Source of the DNA: an uncultured candidate division Zixibacteria bacterium
GTDB taxonomy: Bacteria > Zixibacteria > MSB-5A5 > UBA10806
Length of the DNA: 64,000 nucleotides
Assembly (NCBI GenBank): GCA_963817915.1
Contig: CAWFQL010000018.1
Location: forward strand, 32,001-96,000
Direction: 5' to 3'
The notes below the pieces were generated by a model, which was given only the letters and a program-made list of their open reading frames with translations, made no database searches and was not told where the DNA came from. The number at the start of each line of letters is the position of its first letter. Within the stretch, counting starts at the first letter, position 1. This document shows positions 25,356 to 34,662 of the stretch, piece by piece. The position numbers and the translations under genes are program-made.

Positions 25356-27626
25356 TTAGCATTTCGAGTATCCGCAGTCGGGGCAGTAAATACATCCTGA
25401 TTCGGTATTCAGCTTATTTCCGCAATCGGGGCAGATCAACGCTGATAGATCTGTTTGCGCCTTGAGCGTCTTGCCGTTGCCGAAATGCTTATGCAACGTC
25501 TTCGCGATAGCATCGGGCACCGAACGAACCAAGCCACCTGATCCGAAGACCGGCGTATCGCCGCCGATTCCTCGCAATTGCTCTATAATCTCCTCGACTG
25601 ATACTCCTGTTCTCAACGCCAGCGAAATCAGCCTGCAAACAGCCTCGGTATCGGCCATTGTGTCATGGCCCGATTTACCAATCTGGGCGAATACCTCGAA
25701 TGGTTTGCCGTTGAGCGTATTTATAGTGACATAAAGATTGCCGAATCCGGTCTTGATCTTGTTGGTGATTCCCTGCAATGTCTCCGGGCGATCCCTTACC
25801 TCGCCTTTCCCGTCCTCTAATTCCTTCTTATCGCTTTTCTTGGTGGAAAGAACCTGATAAGCCCTTGAGCCGTCGCGATAAATAGTCACGCCTTTGCAAC
25901 CCGAATTATAGGCAAGCTCGTATGCGGTCTTGACATCATCGGCGGTCGCGGAGTTGGGTAGATTTATTGTTTTTGATACAGCGTTTTCGGTATGCTTCTG
26001 GAATGCAGCCTGCATCCTGACATGCCATTCAGGTGAGATATCGTGAGCAGTCACGAACACTTGCTTGATTGCTTCAGGGATTTCTTCGAATTCGGAGATC
26101 GAATTCTTTTCAGCAATCCGCTCCATAAGACGATCCGAATATATCCCCATCTCCTTGGCGCGAGATTCAAACAACGGGTTTACTTCGACAAGTCGTGTAT
26201 TATCCATGACATTGCGAATATAGCTGATCGCGAAGATCGGTTCTATTCCCGACGAACATCCAGCTATAATCGAAATAGTTCCGGTTGGCGCGATTGTCGT
26301 TACTGTCGAATTTCTCCGCGAATGACCCGATCCAAGCTTTTCATTATAGAATGACGATTTTTTCCAGTTTGGAAATTCTCCGCGCTTTTTGGCGAGCTCA
26401 TTACTGGCGGCATCCGCGGCGCCCTGAATAAAGCTCATCACTTGCTCCGATAACTTCAGCGCCTCTTCAGAATTGTATGGCACATCGAGCATGATAAGCA
26501 AATCCGCCCAGCCCATAACTCCGAGTCCGATTCGGCGATTATTCTTGGTGGATTTGTCTATTTCCGGAAGTGGATAGCGATTTTCCTCTATGACATTATC
26601 GAGGAAATGAATTGCCTGCTCTACAAGCTCTTTCAATTTATCCCAGTCGATTTCGTTGCGAAACATTTTGGAGGTATCCGATGAATCGACAACTGCCTTC
26701 ACGACCTTGGATAAATTAATCGATCCTAAATTGCAGCTTTCATAGGGGAGAAGCGGCTGTTCGCCGCAGGGATTAGTAGCTTCGACCAACCCGACTGCAT
26801 TGGTTTTTTCTTTGGAATTGATTCTGTCGATAAATATTACACCCGGCTCGCCGGTTCTGTGAGCGTGATCTATAATTGCCTGGAACACTTCGTTGGCATC
26901 GAGACTCAACGGCTTATTGTCTCTGATAAAATGCTGGCCGTCTTTCGGATTCAGCAGGGGATAGGTCGTATGATTTTTTACTGCCCGCATGAATTCATCT
27001 GTGATCGCCACGGAAATATTGAAATTCGTCAGTTCATTCAAATCATCTTTGCATTTGATAAAATCCAATATATCAGGATGATCCACCCGTAGTATGCCCA
27101 TGTTGGCGCCGCGCCGCGTGCCGCCCTGCTTAACAGCCTCGGTTGCCGCGTTAATTACCTTCATGAAACTCACAGGCCCCGATGCTACTCCCGAGGTCGA
27201 GGCTACCATCGAATTCTTGGGCCTTAGACGAGAAAACGAAAATCCGGTGCCACCGCCCGATTTATGAATCAATGCGGTATGTTTAACAGTATCGAAAATT
27301 GAATCCATGGAATCTTCGATTGGCAATACGAAGCACGCCGAAAGCTGTCCCAATTTTCTGCCGGCATTCATGAGAGTAGGAGAATTAGGCAAAAATTCCA
27401 GGCGGGCCATCATACGATAAAAATCCGAAGTCGCCTTTTCGACATCCTCAGCGGTGGCTCCGAATTTTAAATCGGCATCCGCGATTGTCCGTGCTACTCG
27501 TAAGAATAGCTCGCCTGGAGTTTCAACTACTTGCCCGAGATCGTTCTTGATCAGGTAACGCCTTTTTAAGACGGCAAGTGAATTTGCTGTCAATTGTGGC
27601 GTCATCTCTGTCTGTTGTTTTTGCAC
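25356..27626 (-). CDS. nrdJ: Class II (adenosylcobalamin-dependent) ribonucleotide reductase with fused TSCPD and Zn-ribbon C-terminus
   Basis: [53 protein letters not shown], then SVPDA and CPDC...CPDCGYSKC. No N-terminal ATP-cone is visible. Confidence 0.93.
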
Positions 27627-27662
27627 CTGGCCGCCCTCCTGCTAATGGAAACTACATAGCCT

Positions 27663-28424
27663 CTATGTATAAAATTCATAAGTTGCCGATTTTGTTTCTT
27701 CATCTATCTTGAAGTCTCCGAATACGATAGGAGCTTCCTTCTTCATCGTTTTCAGCATTTCCAACGCTATTGATCTTATCTCCCAATGAGCCCTCGGGTG
27801 AGTGCGAAGGCAGAAAAAATGCCTCAATTCGCGGAAGTTCGCCGTGATTACTATTTCCGATACGGTCGCGTTTGGCAGTAAGTATCTGGCATCCTCGGGC
27901 GGCACTCCGGCATCAAGCAGTTTTTCATATAGCTCGTAACTCACCAAAATCGCCTTTTCGTATAGCTTTACAAAATCCTCTTTTTTGTCTGGATATGAAG
28001 CGTTAACTATTGTCTCAGGAATTACGACCTGAAAATCAGTGGTTTTCTTTCTGTCTTTTTTATCCGCATAGCAGACATAGCGCTGGCTTTCCTGCGATGG
28101 CGAGATAAGCCTATGGCGCACAAGCTCATGCGTGAATACCCTCGATGCCCCTTTTATCCTGAAGGTAGCCGAGGCATGTTCCATCACCGAATGATGCCCT
28201 TTATTTAATATCTTTTCGATAAGTTCTTTGGTCGATGTTGGTGGATCATAACGATGGAATGAAAGATAGCAGGTTCTGCACGCCTTCTCAATAATATCTT
28301 CTCCATTGGGAGTGATTGACATAAGCTCAATACTGCTTTGGGCAAAATATGGACTCAGTCGGTCTCCGCGGAAAGTCTTGTTCGAACTATTTAACAACAA
28401 ATCAATAACCTCTCCCCCCGGCAT
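27663..28424 (-). CDS. thyX: FAD-dependent thymidylate synthase
   Basis: GHHSVMEH, RHRLISPSQESQRY (RHRx7S motif), EDARYLLP, NFRELRHF, HWEIR. The exact start is uncertain. Confidence 0.95.
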   Translation of the reverse strand: MPGGEVIDLLLNSSNKTFRGDRLSPYFAQSSIELMSITPNGEDIIEKACRTCYLSFHRYDPPTSTKELIEKILNKGHHSVMEHASATFRIKGASRVFTHELVRHRLISPSQESQRYVCYADKKDRKKTTDFQVVIPETIVNASYPDKKEDFVKLYEKAILVSYELYEKLLDAGVPPEDARYLLPNATVSEIVITANFRELRHFFCLRTHPRAHWEIRSIALEMLKTMKKEAPIVFGDFKIDEETKSATYEFYT

Positions 28425-28496
28425 TGCTTTTTTATGTAAAAACTACCACAAAATACTTCTAACTTCTCAACCATTTATCTTCAAATGGCGAGGAGC

Positions 28497-28525
28497 ATTG
28501 TAGCGACCAGCCAAAATACTGTCAA
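28497..28525 (-). promoter_or_regulatory. Promoter of thyX-nrdJ (TTGACA-17-TACAAT)
   Basis: Minus-strand TTGACA at 28525-28520 and TACAAT at 28502-28497. Confidence 0.8.
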
Positions 28526-28553
28526 GAAAAAATTGTTATTTTTTTTCGATTTA

Positions 28554-28601
28554 ACACAACATGTTGTGTATCAACATACTTCAAAATACCATATATCGTG
28601 T
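28554..28601. promoter_or_regulatory. Tandem NrdR boxes (copy 1)
   Basis: The perfect palindrome ACACAACATGTTGTGT (28554-28569) and ATACCATATATCGTGT (28586-28601) match the acaCwAtATaTwGtgt consensus. They are offset by 32 bp and lie upstream of an RNR operon. Confidence 0.85.
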
Positions 28602-28687
28602 CTGGCCTATTTTTTTGTGTCATATTCAGGCTTGACTTTTTGCCGATTTTTGTTAAATTATTGTTAATTAACAAGAAAGGAGCTTTA

Positions 28688-31151
28688 ATGTTTAGAAAGC
28701 TTTTAATAGTAATAATAATGATAGCAAGCTTCACCACGATCGCTATCGCTTCTGATAACTATATTATCGTTGTAGAAAACCCCCAAAGCGGAGCTCCGGC
28801 TGATTTAAATAGCTATCCGGGAGGGGTATGGGGAAAGACAATTGACAAAATTTATCTGGCCGGCGATGACAACGATATAGCTTGGCTCGATGATCATTAC
28901 ATTCAGTATAAAAAAATTCCATTCGATGGGGAATGCTCCAATCTTTATCTGATTCAATCAGACGGTCGGGGGTCTTTGATGAATTCCAATATTCTTGATT
29001 CCGGCCCCGGATACATTTTAAGCCTTGATAAGCCCATCGGAAATCATGAATATCAAATTCTCACTCAGCGAAGACTGCCATTAGGAAATCGCGATTTTCA
29101 GCCCGAAATGATCCTGACATACAATAATGCCGTGGCAAACATGATCGGCCAGGTCAATCAGGACACTATCATTAATGGTCTTTCGAGATTGTCGGGCGCT
29201 TCTCCGATCATGTTTAATGGCCATCAGGATACGATCAAAACCAGATTCTCAGGCACCGATGATAATTCCATGGCCGCGGAATATATTTCCCAGATTTTAA
29301 ATTCGTATGGATACGATGTCGAATACGATGGTTTCTTCTCGGGAAATTTACGGCACGTCGCCGCATATAATAATAATTTCGCCTGGGCCGTCGCGGAAAA
29401 TTCTACGGCATACAGAACTACCAATGGCGGCAATACCTGGAATATCATGGCCGATAATTCGGCTTATTCTCTATGGGGTGTTTCCAATATTGGCCCGGAT
29501 TCGATATGGATTACCGGCGATATCGGGACGATCAGATTTTCATCCGATGGCGGATTAAATTTCGCGACACAAAATGCTAATACGCAGGAATTTCCTATTC
29601 GGATCGAGTTTCATAAATTCATCCGAAGGCTGGGTGGCCTGCGATAACGGCCATGTTCTGTATACTACTAATTCCGGACTAAACTGGACTCAGCAAACTA
29701 CTCCGGTCGGCTCCCGATTTTACGATATCAAATTTGTCGATTCCCAATATGGTTGGGCTGTCGGTAGGGACGGTTCGATAGTCAGTACCACAAATGGAGG
29801 CGCTAATTGGGTTCGGCAGACATCCAACACTATTGAACGATTATATGGCGTCGATTTCACTGATCGCAATAACGGCTGGGTGGTTGGATGGAATGGTGTC
29901 GTGTTGCATACCACCAATGGCGGCGCCAACTGGCAAAATGTATCTCTTGGAACTGCGGTCGAAAAATACCAGGTCAATTTCAGCGATGCTTCACACGGCT
30001 GCATAGTCGGCTGGAACGGCGAAGTATTTATAACATCGAATGCGGGCGGCAACTGGACACAAATCCAGGCGGGAACTCTCAAGAATTTCTACGGCGTTGA
30101 TTTTGCCAGTACCCAAATCGGGTACGCTGTTGGCGATGGCGCAATATATAAGACCGCCGATGGTGGCACAACCTGGATCAGCCAGAATGCAGGCGTAGAG
30201 GGGGCGTGGCGCAATGTCATCGCGACAAAACCGGGGACGGTCAATCCTAATCATCAGGTTATTGTCTGTGGTCACTTCGATAACACATCCCAGCAGCCGC
30301 AAATTACCGCTACTGGTGCCGATGATAACGGCTCGGGGACAATAGGCGTAATTGAAGCGGCCAGAATTTTCGCGAATAGGCATTTTGAAAAGACTATCAA
30401 ATTCTGCCTTTGGACAGGCGAGGAGCAGGGGTTGCTTGGTTCGGCTTCATACGCAGAAGCGGCCAGTTTCAGGGGCGATAGCATAGACGGTGTTTTTAAC
30501 TACGATATGATTTCATATGATGGTAACGCCGACAATCATGGCGAGCTGCATTGCGGCACGCAGGCGGCGTCTATTGCTCTCGGTAATCTTACACAAACCG
30601 TCATCGAGGATTATACCATTGATTTGAATACCACTATCCTTACCTGGAATGCCACAAATCGTTCTGACCATGCGTCCTTCTGGAATTACAATTATCCCGC
30701 AATGCTCAGCATTGAGGATTTCTCCAGCGATTTCAATCCATTCTATCATACTACCGGTGATAACATGAGTATCATTGTGCCGACATACTTTACGAGTTAT
30801 GTCAAAACATTGGTTGGCGGCTCAGCGTCGCTCGCTATTCCCGATACAATTAATACCGGTATCGATAATAACGAAATATTGCCTGAAAATATCGCGCTAA
30901 TCCAGAGCTATCCCAACCCATTCAATCCATCTGCCACTATATCTTTCACACTTAAGGCGCCATCAGATATGGATCTTTCAATATTTGATATTCTCGGACG
31001 TAAGGTTGCGACAGTGTATAGTGGCCGTGCCGAAGCGGGCACTCATAATATCACCTGGAATGCCGGAGATAATTCATCCGGCATCTATTTGTATCGTCTG
31101 TCGTCGAAAGACGGCCTTAATGCCTCCGGCCGAATGACATTGTTGAAATGA
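28688..31151 (+). CDS. M28 family Zn peptidase with an inserted YCF48/BNR-like propeller and FlgD/T9SS-like CTD; one +1 frameshift near 29588
   Basis: AAGGAG RBS, ATG at 28688 and signal peptide. Repeated GW.VG..G....TxNGGxxW blades. M28 motifs GHFD, GADDNGSG, GEEQGLLGS, NYDMI, SDHASF and YHTTGD. CTD YPNPFN. Confidence 0.88.
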
Positions 31152-31172
31152 TCATGAATATTAAAATGCTCT

Positions 31173-31195
31173 GTAGGGGCGAGGTTACCTCGCCC
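31173..31195 (+). repeat. GTAG-type REP-like palindrome
   Basis: GTAG-GGGCGAGG-TTA-CCTCGCCC just downstream of a stop codon. Confidence 0.65.
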
Positions 31196-31368
31196 TGATC
31201 GCGCCTTCAGAAACCCTTCCTGACGGCATTTTTTTTGGCGCTGGCTTTTATCATATTATCGGGTCGCCTGATCCGACACAAAAAGAATCGCCAAATGAGG
31301 GCACTCTGTTTCATTTTTAATAGTTTTTCTAAGCATAAAAGAAATGCTGATTGATTAAAAGGAGCAAT

Positions 31369-32145
31369 ATGAAAACCAAAACTATCGTAATCACAGGGGC
31401 CAGCGGCGGTATCGGAGCCGAATTGGCCAGACAACTTGGAGCTCAAGGTCATAACATTATCCTGGCCGCCCGCAGGGAAATTGAACTAACCAATGTTGCC
31501 AATCAGATCGGCAAGAACGCCATTACAGTCATCGCCGATGTCAGACAGCGCTCAAATGTCGATAATATTAAATCCAAAGCCCTACAAAAATTCCCGGCGA
31601 TCGATGTCTGGGTAAATAATGCGGGCAGGGGCATTCGCAAAAATGTCCTCGATCTCACCGATGATGATATCGACGAAATCATCGCAGTCAATATCAAATC
31701 TGCCATCTACGGCATGCAAGCCATTATTCCATATTTCATGCAAAGGGGAGAAGGCCATCTTCTCAATATCTCGTCCTTTCTCGGCAAAGTCCCCATTGTA
31801 CCATTCCGCTCGATCTATAGCGCCGCCAAAGCAGCCCTAAATTCATTAACATCGAACCTCCGGATGGACCTGGGTGATCGATATCCGAATATCCATGTAA
31901 CTACAGTCATGCCGGGCGGAGTCGCTACCGATTTTTCGAAAAATGCTCTGGGTGGCCCGCCGCCAACTCCACCTCCAGCCGGCGCTATGAGGGCCCAAAC
32001 CGCCGCTGAGGCCGCCGCCGCTATCGTATCGGTGATCGAAAATCCACGCCCAGAAATATTCACCATTCCCGCCTTAGCCGATATCGCCAAACGATACCAC
32101 AACGACATCGCCGCCTTCGAAGAAGGATTGCGAAAAATGGGATAG
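31369..32145 (+). CDS. Short-chain dehydrogenase/reductase (SDR)
   Basis: TGASGGIG, NNAG and YSAAK (YxxxK). AAGGAG RBS before the ATG at 31369. Confidence 0.93.
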   Translation: MKTKTIVITGASGGIGAELARQLGAQGHNIILAARREIELTNVANQIGKNAITVIADVRQRSNVDNIKSKALQKFPAIDVWVNNAGRGIRKNVLDLTDDDIDEIIAVNIKSAIYGMQAIIPYFMQRGEGHLLNISSFLGKVPIVPFRSIYSAAKAALNSLTSNLRMDLGDRYPNIHVTTVMPGGVATDFSKNALGGPPPTPPPAGAMRAQTAAEAAAAIVSVIENPRPEIFTIPALADIAKRYHNDIAAFEEGLRKMG

Positions 32146-32155
32146 GATTTTTTGA

Positions 32156-32244
32156 GGTTTGATAAATCAAACCCCTACCCTTGCCTATTGAAGATGGTTG
32201 AAAAATTAACAAAATTACGGTAGGGGTTCAAAATTTTGAACCCC
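32156..32244. repeat. Pair of oppositely oriented GTAG-type REP-like palindromes
   Basis: Minus strand GTAG-GGGTTTGA-TTTA-TCAAACC (32178-32156) and plus strand GTAG-GGGTTCAAAATTTTGAACCC (32220-32243). Confidence 0.7.
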
Positions 32245-32353
32245 TCTTATCATGCGCTAAATCGATCCATATTACTGGCCGACCTGCGAAATCTCCTTTC
32301 TTATTGAATCTCAACAACTTAATCCTGTTTACCCAAAATCTTGCCTAAATAGT

Positions 32354-32477
32354 ACACAAAAAAATGGGCCAGACACAATCTATGGTATTTTGAAATATGT
32401 TGATACACAACATGTTGTGTTAAATTGAAAAAAAATATCAATTTTTTCTTGACAGTTTTTTGCTTGCTCGCTAACAT
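32354..32477 (+). promoter_or_regulatory. Duplicated promoter/NrdR-box block (copy 2): boxes at 32373-32388 and 32405-32420, TTGACA-17-TAACAT at 32449-32477
   Basis: ~90% identical inverted copy of 28497-28620. The palindromic box, the -35 element, the 32-bp box offset and the 17-bp spacer are all retained. Confidence 0.85.
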
Positions 32478-32732
32478 GGGCGCGATTTCGGGATGCTTTT
32501 GAGCATCTACCGCCTTGGTTGGCCAGTAATGCCTTAAGTTTCAAGATGTTAAGGCGGCGAGTACAAAACAATTAAATCGGAGGGGGATAATGAAAAAAAA
32601 TTAAGCGAGCAATGTTGTTTGAGCAACATTACTCGCTCGGAATCAAAGTAATAGAAATCTATCCTATTACCTCAGATATCTTAGGATAAGATTTCTATAA
32701 AGAAAAAACAATATAATTTTGAAAGGTGAAAA

Positions 32733-33011
32733 ATGAACCTTGATCATCAAACGTTAAAACAAATCTGGAATAAAGCCACTCCAATTTCCGGTTACACTCC
32801 TGAAGTGTGGCGGCGAGATTATTTCGGGTCCGCGATAAATTGGGGCGATTACGGAAACAGAAATTCCGAATATGGTTGGGAAGTAGACCATTATATTCCC
32901 ACTCATAAGGGTGGCAGTGACGCCTTAGAAAATCTTCGCCCACTAAATTGGAAGAACAATGCAAAAAAGCAAGATAACTTGCTTTCGCAACTTTTGAACC
33001 TTAAACATTAA
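32733..33011 (+). CDS. Small stand-alone HNH endonuclease
   Basis: GWEVDHYIP..KGGSD..ENLRPLNWKNN HNH motif. GAAAGGTG RBS. Confidence 0.88.
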   Translation: MNLDHQTLKQIWNKATPISGYTPEVWRRDYFGSAINWGDYGNRNSEYGWEVDHYIPTHKGGSDALENLRPLNWKNNAKKQDNLLSQLLNLKH

Positions 33012-33026
33012 TTTTACTATTTCACC

Positions 33027-33052
33027 GGCGGCCATAACTCATTATGGTCGCC
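33027..33052. terminator. Hairpin between the convergent HNH and methyltransferase genes
   Basis: GGCGGCCATAA-CTCA-TTATGGTCGCC. Confidence 0.6.
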
Positions 33053-33088
33053 ATTATTTATTCATTTAATAAAGATAAAAACAATATA

Positions 33089-33739
33089 CTACTTCTTCAC
33101 AAACACAATATAATCTCTGGCCACTTTATGAATATCATATTTGTCGCAGCCAGCATCCTTCATCAGCCGCTTGACTCGCCCCAATGAATAGAATCGCACA
33201 GGGCAATTGTTCAACGACAGTCGAACCTTTCTAATAGGTGTCATTGGATGGCAGAGCTTGGGGAATGACATAAATAAATTGCCATTGTTGATCTCGAGCA
33301 TCTTCTTAATATGCGGTAATGGCTCTAAAATATAATCGAAATATCCCACCGCCAAAATTATATCGTATTTTTTCTCAGCCTTGAAATCCATGAAATCGTT
33401 CATCTGGAATTTCATCTTATCCGCTAAGCCCGCTTCCTTGGCAAGCGTCCGAGCCGATACCAGCGCGCCCTCGGCGGCATCGATCCCCAATATATCGGTC
33501 GCGCCATGCTTCGCGGCCTCGAACATATATCGTCCGGTGCCGCATCCGATATCGAGCACCGATTTGCCCGACATGTCCTTCATCAGATCGAATGCCAGAT
33601 TAAATCTCATCCTTACCGATGCTCTTACAGTTCGGTCGAGCCAGCCGGAGAATCCTTTTCTCTCCTGGTAAATTTTATCGAATACTTCTATACGTCTGTC
33701 AAAATAGTCAATTGCTCCGGGATTTCGTCTGTCGGTCAT
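33089..33739 (-). CDS. Class I SAM-dependent methyltransferase
   Basis: VLDIGCGTG motif I, GID, YDII. GGAGG RBS. Confidence 0.9.
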   Translation of the reverse strand: MTDRRNPGAIDYFDRRIEVFDKIYQERKGFSGWLDRTVRASVRMRFNLAFDLMKDMSGKSVLDIGCGTGRYMFEAAKHGATDILGIDAAEGALVSARTLAKEAGLADKMKFQMNDFMDFKAEKKYDIILAVGYFDYILEPLPHIKKMLEINNGNLFMSFPKLCHPMTPIRKVRLSLNNCPVRFYSLGRVKRLMKDAGCDKYDIHKVARDYIVFVKK

Positions 33740-33981
33740 TTTTCCTCCATAATTGCCTCATTATAACCATATTCCGATTTTGAGGCAAAGATATTATGCG
33801 CGCTTAGGCTTAAAATAGGCTTTGAAAGATAAAATAAATCTGCCAACGGTTCAAAATCGCTCCCCAAAAATCTCCTTTGATTTACACTGGAATCTTTCTA
33901 TCTTTAATTCAATAGGATGATCTTCGAAATGGCTGTCAAAATTCTTGAGGCCACATTACCGGGATCAAGCGTATAAATAGT

Positions 33982-34662
33982 ATGTTGAAAAAGCTTCTTT
34001 TGGTACCAGTAATTCTAATGTCCCTGATTGCCATAACCGATGGCCAGGAAAAGAGTTCGCAGGACCCTTCGGCGGTGACTATCGCCCGCCTTCATTATTC
34101 TGGCGGGGGCAATTGGTACTGGGGTCAGTCCGCGCTACCCAATCTGCTAAAATTCATGAAAGAAAATACCACGATTGAAACCGCCGATCAGGAAGTCAAT
34201 GTCATTCCTACCGATCCGAATCTGTTCAAATACCCGTTTCTCTATCTTACCGGACATGGCGATTTACGTTTCTCCGACGATGACGCCGCGGCCCTGCGTG
34301 CCTATCTCGAAAATGGCGGTTTTCTTTTCGCCAATGATAGCTATGGCCTGAATGCCGATTTCAGAAAAGCGATGAAGCAGGTTTTCCCCGATAGAGAGCT
34401 GGTCGAATTGCCATTCGCTCACCCCGTATATCATTCGAGATATGATTTTCCCAACGGCGTTCCGAAAATTCATAAGCATGATGGAAAACCGCCGCAGGGA
34501 TTTGGAATTATTATCGATGGCAGGCTTGTGGTCTTTTTCGACTTTGAATCGGATATCGGCGATGGCCTGGAAGATTCTGAAGTATATAACGATCCGCCGG
34601 AAAAACATATCGCCGCCCTACAAATGGCAACAAACCTTGTCACTTACGCGTTGACACATTAG
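33982..34662 (+). CDS. DUF4159 domain protein (secreted)
   Basis: Signal peptide. YPFLYLTGHG, LRAYLENGGFLFA, HPVYH, PKIHKHD, DIGDG. Confidence 0.85.
   Translation: MLKKLLLVPVILMSLIAITDGQEKSSQDPSAVTIARLHYSGGGNWYWGQSALPNLLKFMKENTTIETADQEVNVIPTDPNLFKYPFLYLTGHGDLRFSDDDAAALRAYLENGGFLFANDSYGLNADFRKAMKQVFPDRELVELPFAHPVYHSRYDFPNGVPKIHKHDGKPPQGFGIIIDGRLVVFFDFESDIGDGLEDSEVYNDPPEKHIAALQMATNLVTYALTH

Follow-up and report, generated by a model that had tools for sequence, protein, structure and literature searches.

The NrdR operators of ribonucleotide reductase (RNR) promoters consist of two 16-bp boxes separated by a linker of 15-16 bp; examples come from E. coli nrdHIEF, nrdDG and nrdAB, S. coelicolor nrdRJ, L. 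monocytogenes and S. pneumoniae. According to the site rules in PMC13584703, which were established by experiment, each of the two 16-bp boxes carries C4, A6, T11 and G13 and has an A/T-rich centre, and a change of the A8-to-C type is tolerated. The boxes of S. pneumoniae nrdHEF, as described in PMC12051234, lie wholly upstream of the -35 hexamer. An NrdR box ahead of a non-RNR gene is known from Pseudomonas aeruginosa, where it precedes the DNA-handling gene topA (PMC4409342). At the locus described here, an RNR control region with its NrdR boxes has been duplicated, in inverted orientation, ahead of a gene for a stand-alone HNH nuclease.

The locus belongs to an uncultured sediment bacterium of the candidate division Zixibacteria, whose metagenome-type assembly (3.33 Mb, 22 contigs, completeness 93.86%) holds both copies of the repeat on one 115-kb contig; the window analysed is a stretch of 64,000 nt. 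Copy 1 (28496..28686, both strands), delimited by repeat search and motif scan, is a divergent control region. The motif scan places NrdR box 1 at 28586-28601 and box 2 at 28554-28569, both on the minus strand, followed by the predicted thyX-nrdJ promoter (-35 TTGACA 28520-28525, 17-bp spacer, -10 TACAAT 28497-28502). The first gene after it is thyX (27663..28424, minus), which encodes a flavin-dependent thymidylate synthase (Pfam PF02511, E 1.2e-63). It is 69-78% identical in 13/13 family genomes with alignments that begin at query residues 4-48, and its real start is probably slightly downstream of 28424. The second gene of the operon is nrdJ (25356..27626, minus), a class II RNR with a C-terminal TSCPD domain (PF02867 E 1.7e-143, PF00317, PF12637). 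On the plus strand, copy 1 has a promoter-like TTGACT 28632-28637 / TAAATT 28654-28659 and a Shine-Dalgarno (SD) sequence AAGGAG (28677-28682) for an M28 peptidase with BNR repeats and a T9SS sorting tail (28688..31151, plus; PF04389, PF14870, PF18962). The peptidase gene is a single open reading frame of 772-823 aa in the relatives and is frame-split here (28688-29647 and 29574-31151). A short-chain dehydrogenase/reductase gene (SDR; 31369..32145, plus; PF00106 E 3.9e-49), with its ATG at 31369 preceded by AAAGGAG, is the second gene between the copies.

Thirteen family genomes served as relatives for comparison. The region is present in 12 of the relatives' loci, and every one of these shows the succession of box 1, 16 bp, box 2, T tract and TTGACA ahead of thyX. 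A strict box-pair pattern, run on the 14 genomes that include the present one, finds exactly one pair in 11 of the 13 relatives, two in the present genome and two in none of the 13; the reversed pattern, used as control, finds none in the 14 genomes. Since the relatives have one box pair, upstream of thyX, and only the present genome has two, copy 1 is, by this comparison, the ancestral copy. Within the order, the box pairs in these genome sequences track NrdR itself: in family f1 all 13 genomes have NrdR and 11 of the 13 have boxes; in family f2 none of the 10 genomes has either. Neither nrdR nor an ATP-cone of any kind was found in the present assembly at its completeness of 93.86%, so that the operator may lack its own repressor in this genome; the initial annotation had not noticed this absence.

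Positions 28497-28620 align with the reverse complement of 32354-32477 over 124 positions, without a gap and with 12 mismatches, exactly as the initial annotation had counted. This core stands, but the real homology is wider than had been claimed. In the repeat search the pair grows to 28496-28639 / 32335-32478 (144 nt, 88%), and a weaker block follows in register at 28653-28686 / 32289-32322 (34 nt, 76%). With this inward extension the homology comes to ~190 bp, bounded at one end by the -10 of the thyX-nrdJ promoter and at the other by the SD AAGGAG of the divergent peptidase gene. The similarity was said to stop at the -10 (TACAAT vs TAACAT), and it does end abruptly there, in-register matches falling to 11/56 beyond it. 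A chance origin of the inverted repeat is excluded (the binomial tail, multiplied by every possible placement in the window, is 2.6e-35). A search of the whole 3.33-Mb assembly finds the two copies only, the second with E 2e-45 and all other matches with E of at least 0.376.

Copy 2 (32289..32478, both strands) emerges from the repeat search, the motif scan and the 14-genome box comparison as an inverted, lineage-specific duplicate. Its plus strand carries box 1 (ACACAATCTATGGTAT, 32373-32388), a 16-bp linker and box 2 (ACACAACATGTTGTGT, 32405-32420), a perfect palindrome, followed by a predicted promoter with -35 TTGACA at 32449-32454, a 17-bp spacer and -10 TAACAT at 32472-32477. Both boxes have C4, A6, T11 and G13, with A/T at six of the eight positions (75%) between C4 and G13. 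Judged by sequence, copy 2, including its A8-to-C change, follows the published rules for an NrdR site throughout (PMC13584703). In box 1, two positions have changed at which the other 13 sequences never vary. The 16 critical positions of the boxes have all been kept, and so have the -35 hexamer and a -10 of the form TAnnAT. The minus-strand, inward half retains the SD AAGGAG, and its peptidase -35, TTGACT, is destroyed. The palindromic box, box spacing, TTGACA and 17-bp spacer that the initial annotation regarded as retained are thus all located. The orientation of the motifs bears out its view that both predicted promoters face outward, that of copy 1 into thyX and nrdJ, as identified by Pfam, and copy 2 is indeed followed by a leader of ~250 nt and a 92-aa HNH gene with a 3' hairpin.

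The two halves of the repeat are conserved unevenly. From box 1 to the -10 the copies are identical at 94/105 positions (90%), and in the inward, peptidase-promoter half, which no longer serves a purpose in the copy, at 31/51 (61%; Fisher p 6.6e-5). Copy 2 deviates at 3/46 family-conserved positions outward vs 7/25 inward (p 0.027; p 0.010 and 0.097 with stricter thresholds). Inside the outward module itself, no significant difference separates conserved from variable positions (p 0.32-0.34). The asymmetry could reflect either selection on the outward promoter or a tract of local gene conversion.

The HNH gene (32733..33011, plus; PF01844, 26.9 bits, cut-off 21.4) has the SD AAGGTG. Its product is free of cysteine and shows the putative catalytic pattern D52-H53...N67...N76, drawn from the invariants of the family alignment. 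In the AF2 model (pLDDT 88.5) the fold is confidently predicted, and the catalytic pattern is intact; the top Foldseek rows are HNH nucleases only, all of them weak. The initial annotation proposed roles such as abortive defence or nucleotide salvage; PADLOC gave no match. The G+C content of the gene, ~0.37, is below that of its surroundings, and the gene may have arrived after the duplication. No other gene lies between copy 2 and the following terminator, a hairpin with ATTATTTATT (33027..33052, plus) that likely ends the HNH unit. The terminator lies between the HNH gene and a convergent class I SAM methyltransferase gene (33089..33739, minus; PF13847, PF13649), for which NCBIfam offers nothing beyond generic matches to small-molecule methyltransferases.

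Homologues of the nuclease were collected from 80 loci (451,395 b), and regulators of stress or immunity are frequent neighbours. A LexA-type gene adjoins the homologue in 4/80 loci, overlapping it on the same strand in three and divergent in the fourth; an XRE HTH gene adjoins it in 6/80, and on an Aeromonas plasmid a WYL regulator is divergent from it. By analogy, these neighbours suggest that the nuclease is normally tightly repressed and released by stress. The check proposed at the outset, a scan for NrdR boxes near HNH homologues, returned no box pair in the 80 loci, and such boxes are no trait of the HNH family. The arrangement of copy 2 and HNH gene is also absent from the 13 family genomes, and no close relative of the present genome was found in which its conservation could be compared. 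The gene is an acquired member of a sporadic accessory family. A full-text literature search found no NrdR-controlled HNH nuclease, just as the initial annotation had known of no such module.

The copy 2 promoter is separated from the HNH gene by a structured region of ~250 nt (32479..32732, plus; fold z -4.45) with hairpins near 32490-32508, near 32520-32560, at 32603-32638 (hairpin C) and at ~32651-32698 (hairpin D). It contains a four-codon mini-ORF on the plus strand (ATG 32590 to TAA 32604) behind a strong SD, GGAGGGGG. The leader has no match in Rfam at E <= 1, and neither the rest of the genome nor the relatives' loci contain anything similar in sequence. No plus-strand terminator-like site was found between 32478 and 32733. 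Apart from the copy 2 promoter, no sigma-70-like site upstream of the HNH gene scores 9/12 or more. A perfect TATAAT at 32712-32717, just upstream of the gene, has no acceptable -35 and is absent from the promoter-like sites of the scan; it could be a weak promoter of the gene's own. A terminator-like hairpin of 15 pairs followed by T8 (32593..32638) is valid on the minus strand only and implies, as read from the sequence, a transcript that runs antisense to the leader, the HNH gene or both; the initial annotation had overlooked this hairpin. Because this minus-strand terminator is strong and the best fold is also on the minus strand (32745-32590, z -7.72), antisense transcription, which could oppose HNH expression, is suggested.

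The explanation favoured here, with about an even chance of being right, is a lineage-specific capture of an NrdR operator and promoter by an acquired nuclease gene. An inverted duplication placed a second example of the ~190-bp control region between thyX-nrdJ and the M28 peptidase gene 3.7 kb away, in a variable region downstream of the peptidase gene. There the outward half (NrdR box pair, A/T-rich tract, TTGACA, 17-bp spacer, TAACAT) is preserved and the inward half, the peptidase promoter, is decayed. No other good promoter than the preserved half stands ahead of the acquired stand-alone HNH gene, which would therefore most likely be transcribed along with the dNTP-synthesis operon, by way of the structured leader of 250 nt. 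The HNH unit would be repressed by NrdR loaded with dATP plus ATP and released at low dNTPs. We infer the activity of the copy 2 promoter, NrdR binding, transcripts that reach the HNH gene and any physiological role. If the explanation is true, an acquired DNA-cutting enzyme may be tied to the nucleotide supply of the cell.

It is quite possible, though less probable than capture, that copy 2 is instead a neutral and slowly decaying by-product of a local rearrangement, with no NrdR wiring, the HNH gene being adjacent by chance and either silent or served by proximal signals of its own. The spot downstream of the peptidase gene is variable: in relative G009 it is occupied by an islet with an IS3 transposase, an ORF without known function, an AHJR-like nuclease and an HNH homologue, and this islet is missing from a 97%-identical contig. 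The present HNH protein and that of G009 are only 35-37% identical, each with 50-60% relatives in other phyla. The frame-split peptidase gene, the two altered family-invariant positions in box 1, the missing nrdR, the 0/80 homologue loci with boxes and the close TATAAT all suit a relic as well. The orphaned promoter that the initial annotation named as a refuting case likewise keeps some probability. Neutral decay is harder to reconcile with an outward module at 90% and an inward one at 61% identity, and with the survival of every critical box position, the -35 and the -10; the proximal TATAAT, for its part, lacks a usable -35. In a 22-contig metagenome-type assembly one might suspect that thyX promoters from two strains were joined into a chimera during assembly or binning, but such an artefact is most improbable. 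The initial annotation argued against it from the divergence between the copies, which is 12%; they are also inverted, with unique flanks on all four sides, on a single 115-kb contig, and no assembler error would yield an inward part far more diverged than the outward one. The repeat is a genuine, diverged duplication of the thyX-nrdJ control region.

Two further readings shift the weight from the promoter to an RNA or to the segment between the copies. That an RNA is the main product or the controller is unlikely; it could be the structured leader RNA from copy 2, or a minus-strand RNA that ends at 32593 and silences the HNH gene, either as an antisense of the leader plus the ribosome-binding region of HNH or as read-through, for which the methyltransferase gene is a possible source. 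Such silencing would resemble that in the SymR/SymE pair, in which the cis-antisense RNA SymR is the antitoxin of the SOS-type toxin SymE. The minus-strand-only terminator and the stronger minus-strand fold (z -7.72 vs -4.45) speak for an RNA, as do minus-strand terminator-like sites within 250 nt upstream of HNH in 11/63 homologue loci (plus-strand, 5/63) and a conserved non-coding block upstream of HNH common to four Bacteroidota loci. Some of the 11 sites, however, may be bidirectional terminators of upstream genes (e.g. beside a tRNA, locus L103), the only minus-strand sigma-70-like site near by (32917-32890) is deep within the HNH gene, and the leader has neither an Rfam family nor a relative in the genome or the relatives' loci. 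Very unlikely is an origin of the inverted copies as footprint or substrate of an inversion, although a discrete segment of 3.7 kb lies between them. PMC4671568 cites H. pylori as a known case of duplication associated with inversion, and a switch could flip the peptidase-SDR segment. Yet the segment has the relatives' orientation, the peptidase gene being divergent from thyX and adjoining copy 1 in all relatives examined; flipping would exchange no functional element, both repeat ends being inside the repeat itself; the longest perfect match between the copies is only ~30 bp; and no recombinase gene is adjacent.

Operator capture, the favoured reading, leaves the locus close to known RNR-promoter NrdR operators in several respects. 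It shares the pair of 16-bp boxes, both partially palindromic, a 16-bp linker, C4/A6/T11/G13, the A/T-rich centre, a copy ahead of an RNR operon as usual, and boxes upstream of the -35 as in S. pneumoniae nrdHEF. It differs in that copy 2, the product of an operator duplication in one lineage whose assembly yielded no nrdR, fronts a nuclease gene and not an RNR. With P. aeruginosa topA it shares a putative NrdR box ahead of a non-RNR gene, but topA (PMC4409342) has a single box, is activated rather than repressed, and is a conserved housekeeping gene with no promoter duplication, whereas the gene here is an acquired accessory nuclease. The top Foldseek row for the HNH protein, the Gme HNH nicking endonuclease of Geobacter metallireducens (4h9d), is a weak match (prob 0.97 over 38 columns, E 0.2, 26% identity). 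The two proteins have in common a size of ~100 aa and the beta-beta-alpha-metal core; the one described here belongs to its own YGNRNSEYGWEIDH...NLRPLNWKNN family and, having no cysteines, is without a site of the zinc-ribbon type. LexA-controlled nuclease or toxin genes are exemplified by SymE, which is SOS-induced and has the antisense RNA SymR. The present locus resembles them in putting a potentially harmful nucleic-acid enzyme under a (putative) genome-integrity repressor, in a possible antisense RNA over the 5' region and, through its homologues, in the lexA-type genes that overlap HNH in three loci and are divergent in a fourth. The protein fold of SymE differs from that of the HNH protein, the antisense RNA here is only putative, and the sensor would be NrdR, which responds to dNTP status, rather than LexA.

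The control region between thyX-nrdJ and the divergent M28 peptidase gene (copy 1, 28496-28686) recurs as an inverted duplicate (copy 2, 32289-32478) in front of an HNH nuclease gene. The 124-bp ungapped inverted repeat described in the initial annotation was recovered with exactly 12 mismatches, and a repeat search of the window enlarged its extent slightly, to 144 nt at 88% identity (28496-28639 and 32335-32478). Because a weaker block lies in register with it (28653-28686 and 32289-32322; 34 nt, 76%), the duplicated unit comprises about 190 bp, from the thyX promoter -10 to the AAGGAG preceding the peptidase ATG at 28688. The claim that the similarity stops at the -10 also held: right past it, only 11 of 56 in-register positions are identical, and the stretch following copy 2 was therefore rejected as a remnant of a thyX leader. 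Chance is excluded as the origin of the repeat (2.6e-35). The window belongs to a 115-kb contig of an assembly of 3.33 Mb in 22 contigs, in which these are the only two copies of the repeat and hold the only NrdR box pairs.

Copy 1 is flanked on the minus strand by thyX (27663-28424) and nrdJ (25356-27626), and on the plus strand by the peptidase gene (28688-31151), which encodes BNR repeats and a T9SS tail. An SDR gene (31369-32145, plus strand) follows, then hairpins, copy 2, a non-coding stretch of 254 nt, the HNH gene (32733-33011, plus strand), the hairpin that ends its unit (33027-33052) and a convergent SAM methyltransferase gene (33089-33739, minus strand). The peptidase gene reads in two overlapping frames (28688-29647 and 29574-31151) where the relatives carry a single ORF of 772-823 aa, so that either a frameshift or a misassembly near 29574-29647 has split it. 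In the thyX ORF a G-rich, Shine-Dalgarno (SD)-like run, GGGGGGAGAGG, and TTG codons come after the first ATG (28380-28424 region). The true thyX start probably lies downstream of 28424, because the relatives' ThyX proteins align only from residue 4-48 onward. One DNA run compared with 27000-34000 yielded a pair of identical contigs of 151 nt in the peptidase gene and some unlike pieces in nrdJ, with no coverage of copy 2 or the HNH gene.

ThyX is encoded in all 13 relatives of the family, and a relaxed scan found the same upstream layout in 12 of the 12 loci that hold the region: box 1, 15-16 bp, box 2, a T-run, about 21 bp, TTGACA, 17-18 bp and TAnnAT. On the opposite side of these loci the promoter and leader of the peptidase gene are likewise conserved, as TTGAC[T/C]...TTAAATTATTGTTAG..AAGAAAGGAG. 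With a strict pattern of the critical box positions, exactly one pair was found in 11 of the 13 relatives and two pairs in this genome; the remaining two relatives have near-variant boxes in the relaxed scan, and the reversed pattern, used as a control, gave 0 pairs in 14 genomes. Copy 1 occupies the RNR-operon promoter (thyX-nrdJ), the location of an NrdR site, and by this comparison is the original control region. A metagenome scan with the double-box pattern yielded one contig, a near-twin of G009 (the family relative with an HNH homologue), lacking a copy-2-like site. The box pair of copy 1 and of the relatives' loci (L019-L030) lies halfway between the two divergent promoters, with each -35 about 28-30 bp away, and the whole intergenic region is kept across the family, including the peptidase leader TTGTTAAATTATTGTTAG..AAGAAAGGAG. 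For these two reasons the secreted peptidase may share NrdR control with thyX-nrdJ.

An NrdR site, according to excerpts of two publications (PMC13584703; PMC12051234), consists of a pair of 16-bp boxes, each partially palindromic, with a linker of 15-16 bp between them. The boxes of copy 2 (32373-32388 and 32405-32420) start 32 bp apart, which gives a 16-bp linker. The mutational study of 2026, as excerpted, finds C4 and G13 critical, A6 and T11 seemingly critical, and A8 and T9 dispensable as long as the A/T share between C4 and G13 is 63% or more (PMC13584703). Both copy 2 boxes, ACACAATCTATGGTAT and ACACAACATGTTGTGT, retain C4, A6, T11 and G13 and have A/T at six of the eight positions 5-12; box 1 has C in place of A8, a change of the kind tolerated under the excerpted rules of PMC13584703. 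About 28 bp downstream of the boxes is the -35 of a promoter, TTGACA-17-TAACAT, with 10 of 12 consensus positions and a spacing within the sigma-70 range of 16-18 bp, a match that by itself is no evidence of promoter activity. The thyX promoters of the family read TTGACA-17/18-TAnnAT, with TAAAAT, TACAAT, TAGTAT or similar as -10. In location copy 2 departs from the rule, as it precedes a leader and the HNH gene and not an RNR operon. Copy 2 is thus by pattern a rule-conforming predicted NrdR operator pair copied from the RNR promoter.

The repressor itself was sought in the assembly (93.86% complete). Neither TIGR00244 nor PF03477 (ATP-cone) found a match there, and the NrdR of a relative gave none in a genome search (best E 0.0115) or by tblastn. 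Within this genome's family NrdR is found in 13 of 13 relatives and the boxes in 11 of 13; in the sister family of the same order both are found in 0 of 10. On these counts the boxes track NrdR across the order, and because of this co-occurrence the simplest reading would place nrdR in the unassembled part of the genome. Recent loss of nrdR is the alternative, and if true would leave both operators idle. The genes that neighbour nrdR in the relative G006 were also sought in the assembly; five of six had no match and the sixth matched a 31%-identical gene elsewhere, a search that cannot tell an assembly gap from nrdR loss. A class III RNR (PF13597) was not found in the assembly. The NrdR proteins of the family (256-279 aa, G001-G013; for example L035 4013-4780) are predicted two-cone NrdRs, since their frame contains another ATP-cone-like match (model positions 49-147).

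The HNH protein matches the PF01844 profile with 26.9 bits against a cut-off of 21.4. It is devoid of cysteine and carries the DH...N...N pattern, in which a catalytic His follows an Asp and the Asn residues are structural and metal-binding, as D52-H53...N67...N76. H53, N67 and N76 show no variation across 16 sequences, 14 of which also keep D52. The AF2 model (pLDDT 88.5) has strands at 49-53 and 68-72 followed by a helix, which may represent the beta-beta-alpha-metal fold of HNH endonucleases. The top Foldseek rows are nearly all HNH nucleases, among them Gme HNH 4h9d, pyocin and colicin DNases, Cas9 and Cas8-HNH, McrA and Cap5, all of them weak, with none at E <= 0.001 and a best E of 0.2. 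A known anti-phage defence system was rejected as its identity: PADLOC returned 0 families at E <= 0.01 for the HNH protein, the G009 homologue and the latter's two neighbours, NCBIfam gave only a weak match to an IscB HNH domain (E 0.0025, 17 bits against a cut-off of 175), and the PDB sequence search only weak Cas8f-HNH matches (E 0.04). The G+C content of the gene is about 0.37, against 0.44-0.50 in the neighbouring genes.

The distribution of the HNH family is sparse and patchy. A set of 5.8 billion proteins contains 15 homologues (best identity 60%), and 185,579 species genomes contain 356 loci spread over many bacterial and archaeal phyla; 14 plasmid records and one phage record carry homologues as well. 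Among the 13 family relatives only G009 has one; it is 35-37% identical and occupies the same variable site downstream of the peptidase gene, with an IS3 transposase and an AHJR-like nuclease as neighbours, an islet that is missing from a 97%-identical metagenome contig. On these sequence comparisons the HNH gene is an accessory gene of the mobile type. The G009 slot between the Fe-ADH and peptidase genes (L032 1938-4086) contains the IS3 transposase, a 131-aa unknown, the HNH and the AHJR-like nuclease; in the metagenome contig (L042 434-1787) the slot has different content, and the G009 peptidase is broken into three ORFs. One archaeal chromosome (Cenarchaeum MAG contig; L059, L091, L112) has three copies of the family within about 50 kb.

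The initial annotation had proposed that NrdR boxes be looked for at HNH homologues, and the best 80 of the 356 loci (451,395 b) yielded 0 box pairs. Nor was a constant partner gene found among the 152 neighbour ORFs of these 80 loci. The gene surroundings are those of typical defence and mobile islands: parts of type I and II restriction-modification systems, Abi (AbiE), toxin-antitoxin genes (ParE), a DncV-like protein and a resolvase. LexA-type genes adjoin the HNH gene at four of the 80 loci, three of them overlapping its start on the same strand; the probability of at least four such neighbours is 2e-5 by a rough binomial estimate that assumes three such genes per 3000. XRE HTH genes adjoin it at six loci, and a divergent WYL regulator stands beside it on an Aeromonas plasmid. 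The LexA cases suggest that lexA-HNH operons exist. In three genomes of different phyla the HNH homologue and a LexA-type gene (S24 peptidase with a LexA or wHTH DNA-binding domain) overlap at the 3' end of the latter, and at the fourth locus the two are divergent (L084 379-1324; L098 2351-3297; L106 2355-3297; L109 2334-3282). At four Bacteroidota loci the homologue lies between hsdS and hsdM (L072, L075, L100) or next to a 61-aa ORF and a DncV-like gene (L087). Ahead of it, all four share a conserved block of non-coding DNA of about 170 nt with GGTGACAAGCC and CGATACCTTA (L072 2745-2965; L100 2790-2985; L087 2740-2975; L075 2765-2985), which ends in a hairpin and U-run on the opposite strand. 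Rfam had no match to the block, and on seven homologue loci matched only a tRNA.

Because no plus-strand terminator-like site was found between 32478 and 32733, transcripts from about 32484 should reach the HNH gene, the unit ending at 33027-33052. The leader folds better than shuffled sequences (z -4.45). Rfam gave no match at E <= 1 in 27500-34000, and in a blastn search (word size 7) with 32479-32740 as the query, neither the whole genome nor 19 loci of relatives contained a match below E 0.18 other than the leader itself and its own hairpin. Within 32578-32604 a strong SD, GGAGGGGG, is followed by a four-codon ORF (32590-32604; ATG AAA AAA AAT TAA), whose stop abuts a 15-pair hairpin at 32603-32638. 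The ORF may encode a leader peptide, may be what is left of an older gene, or may simply result from the T8 terminator tail of the opposite strand. With A8 on the plus strand, the hairpin is terminator-like for the minus strand only. At 32712-32721, 12-21 nt ahead of the HNH start, a perfect TATAAT overlaps TAATTTTG, which matches the Bacteroidota-type -7 motif TAnnTTTG; the two may represent a promoter that the cassette brought with it from an earlier host.

The leading reading, itself about evenly poised, is that a duplicated NrdR operator and promoter was captured in this lineage and kept before an acquired HNH nuclease gene, a reading drawn from the sequence of a single genome. As the duplicated operator and promoter is kept there, the nuclease would probably be co-expressed with thyX-nrdJ at low dNTPs. 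It is doubtful, though a serious rival, that copy 2 is a decaying relic without function. How the copies diverged was followed by aligning them with 12 relatives. The identity between copies is 94/105 from box 1 to the -10, 26/30 in the middle and 31/51 on the peptidase-promoter side, falling to 6/20 beyond the -10 and 8/20 beyond the SD. The outward module, which holds the boxes and the promoter toward the HNH gene, differs in identity from the inward one with a Fisher p of 6.6e-5, and the peptidase -35, TTGACT, is lost in copy 2. Where 10 or more of the 12 relatives agree, copy 2 departs at 3 of 46 positions on the thyX side versus 7 of 25 on the peptidase side (p 0.027; 0.010 and 0.097 at stricter thresholds). 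This asymmetry is as expected from selection on the outward-facing module, and also as expected from a gene-conversion tract confined to the core. Within the outward module, conserved and variable positions do not differ significantly (p 0.32-0.34), and two copy 2 changes fall at positions invariant in the other 13 sequences; these results therefore weigh against a strong claim of selection.

An arrangement centred on an RNA or on antisense is improbable. In its favour, the minus strand folds strongly over 32745-32590 (z -7.72), and because of this fold and the minus-strand terminator some minus-strand transcript probably terminates near 32593, perhaps an antisense RNA that covers the 5' region of the HNH gene, or else a read-through product of the methyltransferase gene. 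Judged as a cis-antisense or type I toxin-antitoxin-like element, the leader has the terminator and the fold, and a convincing promoter for the minus-strand transcript was not found. It is likewise a long shot that the Cys-free mini-HNH family consists of stress-released nucleases placed under whichever repressor senses genome trouble in the host, LexA or WYL/XRE elsewhere and, through operator duplication, NrdR here; NrdR would then trigger the nuclease at dNTP collapse, with a cis-antisense RNA in the leader as safety catch, and the triggers might be replication arrest or nucleotide-draining phage. A free-standing homing endonuclease aimed at thyX/nrdJ had been prompted by an HNH homologue 4-5 kb from thyX in two genera, and the presence of the G009 islet in only some strains would fit it. 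It was set aside: the two proteins are distant (35-37% identical), and at the 80 homologue loci the family keeps company with restriction-modification, Abi, toxin-antitoxin and regulator genes, not with RNR genes. A duplication associated with inversion was also rejected, as the peptidase gene still adjoins copy 1 and is divergent from thyX, the order seen in the relatives, and an invertible switch does not fit the gene order.

If the operator pair is indeed kept before an accessory nuclease, a narrow regulon would have grown by promoter duplication, and a DNA-cutting enzyme would be linked to dNTP status. If copy 2 is only a relic, it is still a clean case of differential decay in the halves of a duplicated divergent promoter. 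In either case the two natural operators, which differ by 11 substitutions in 105 bp, are suited to binding and reporter work. No paper was found with both NrdR and HNH in its title or abstract. Recent literature, as excerpted from PMC13584703, treats NrdR as an essentially RNR-specific repressor. Non-RNR targets of NrdR are known but rare, a well-studied exception being topA in P. aeruginosa (PMC4409342).
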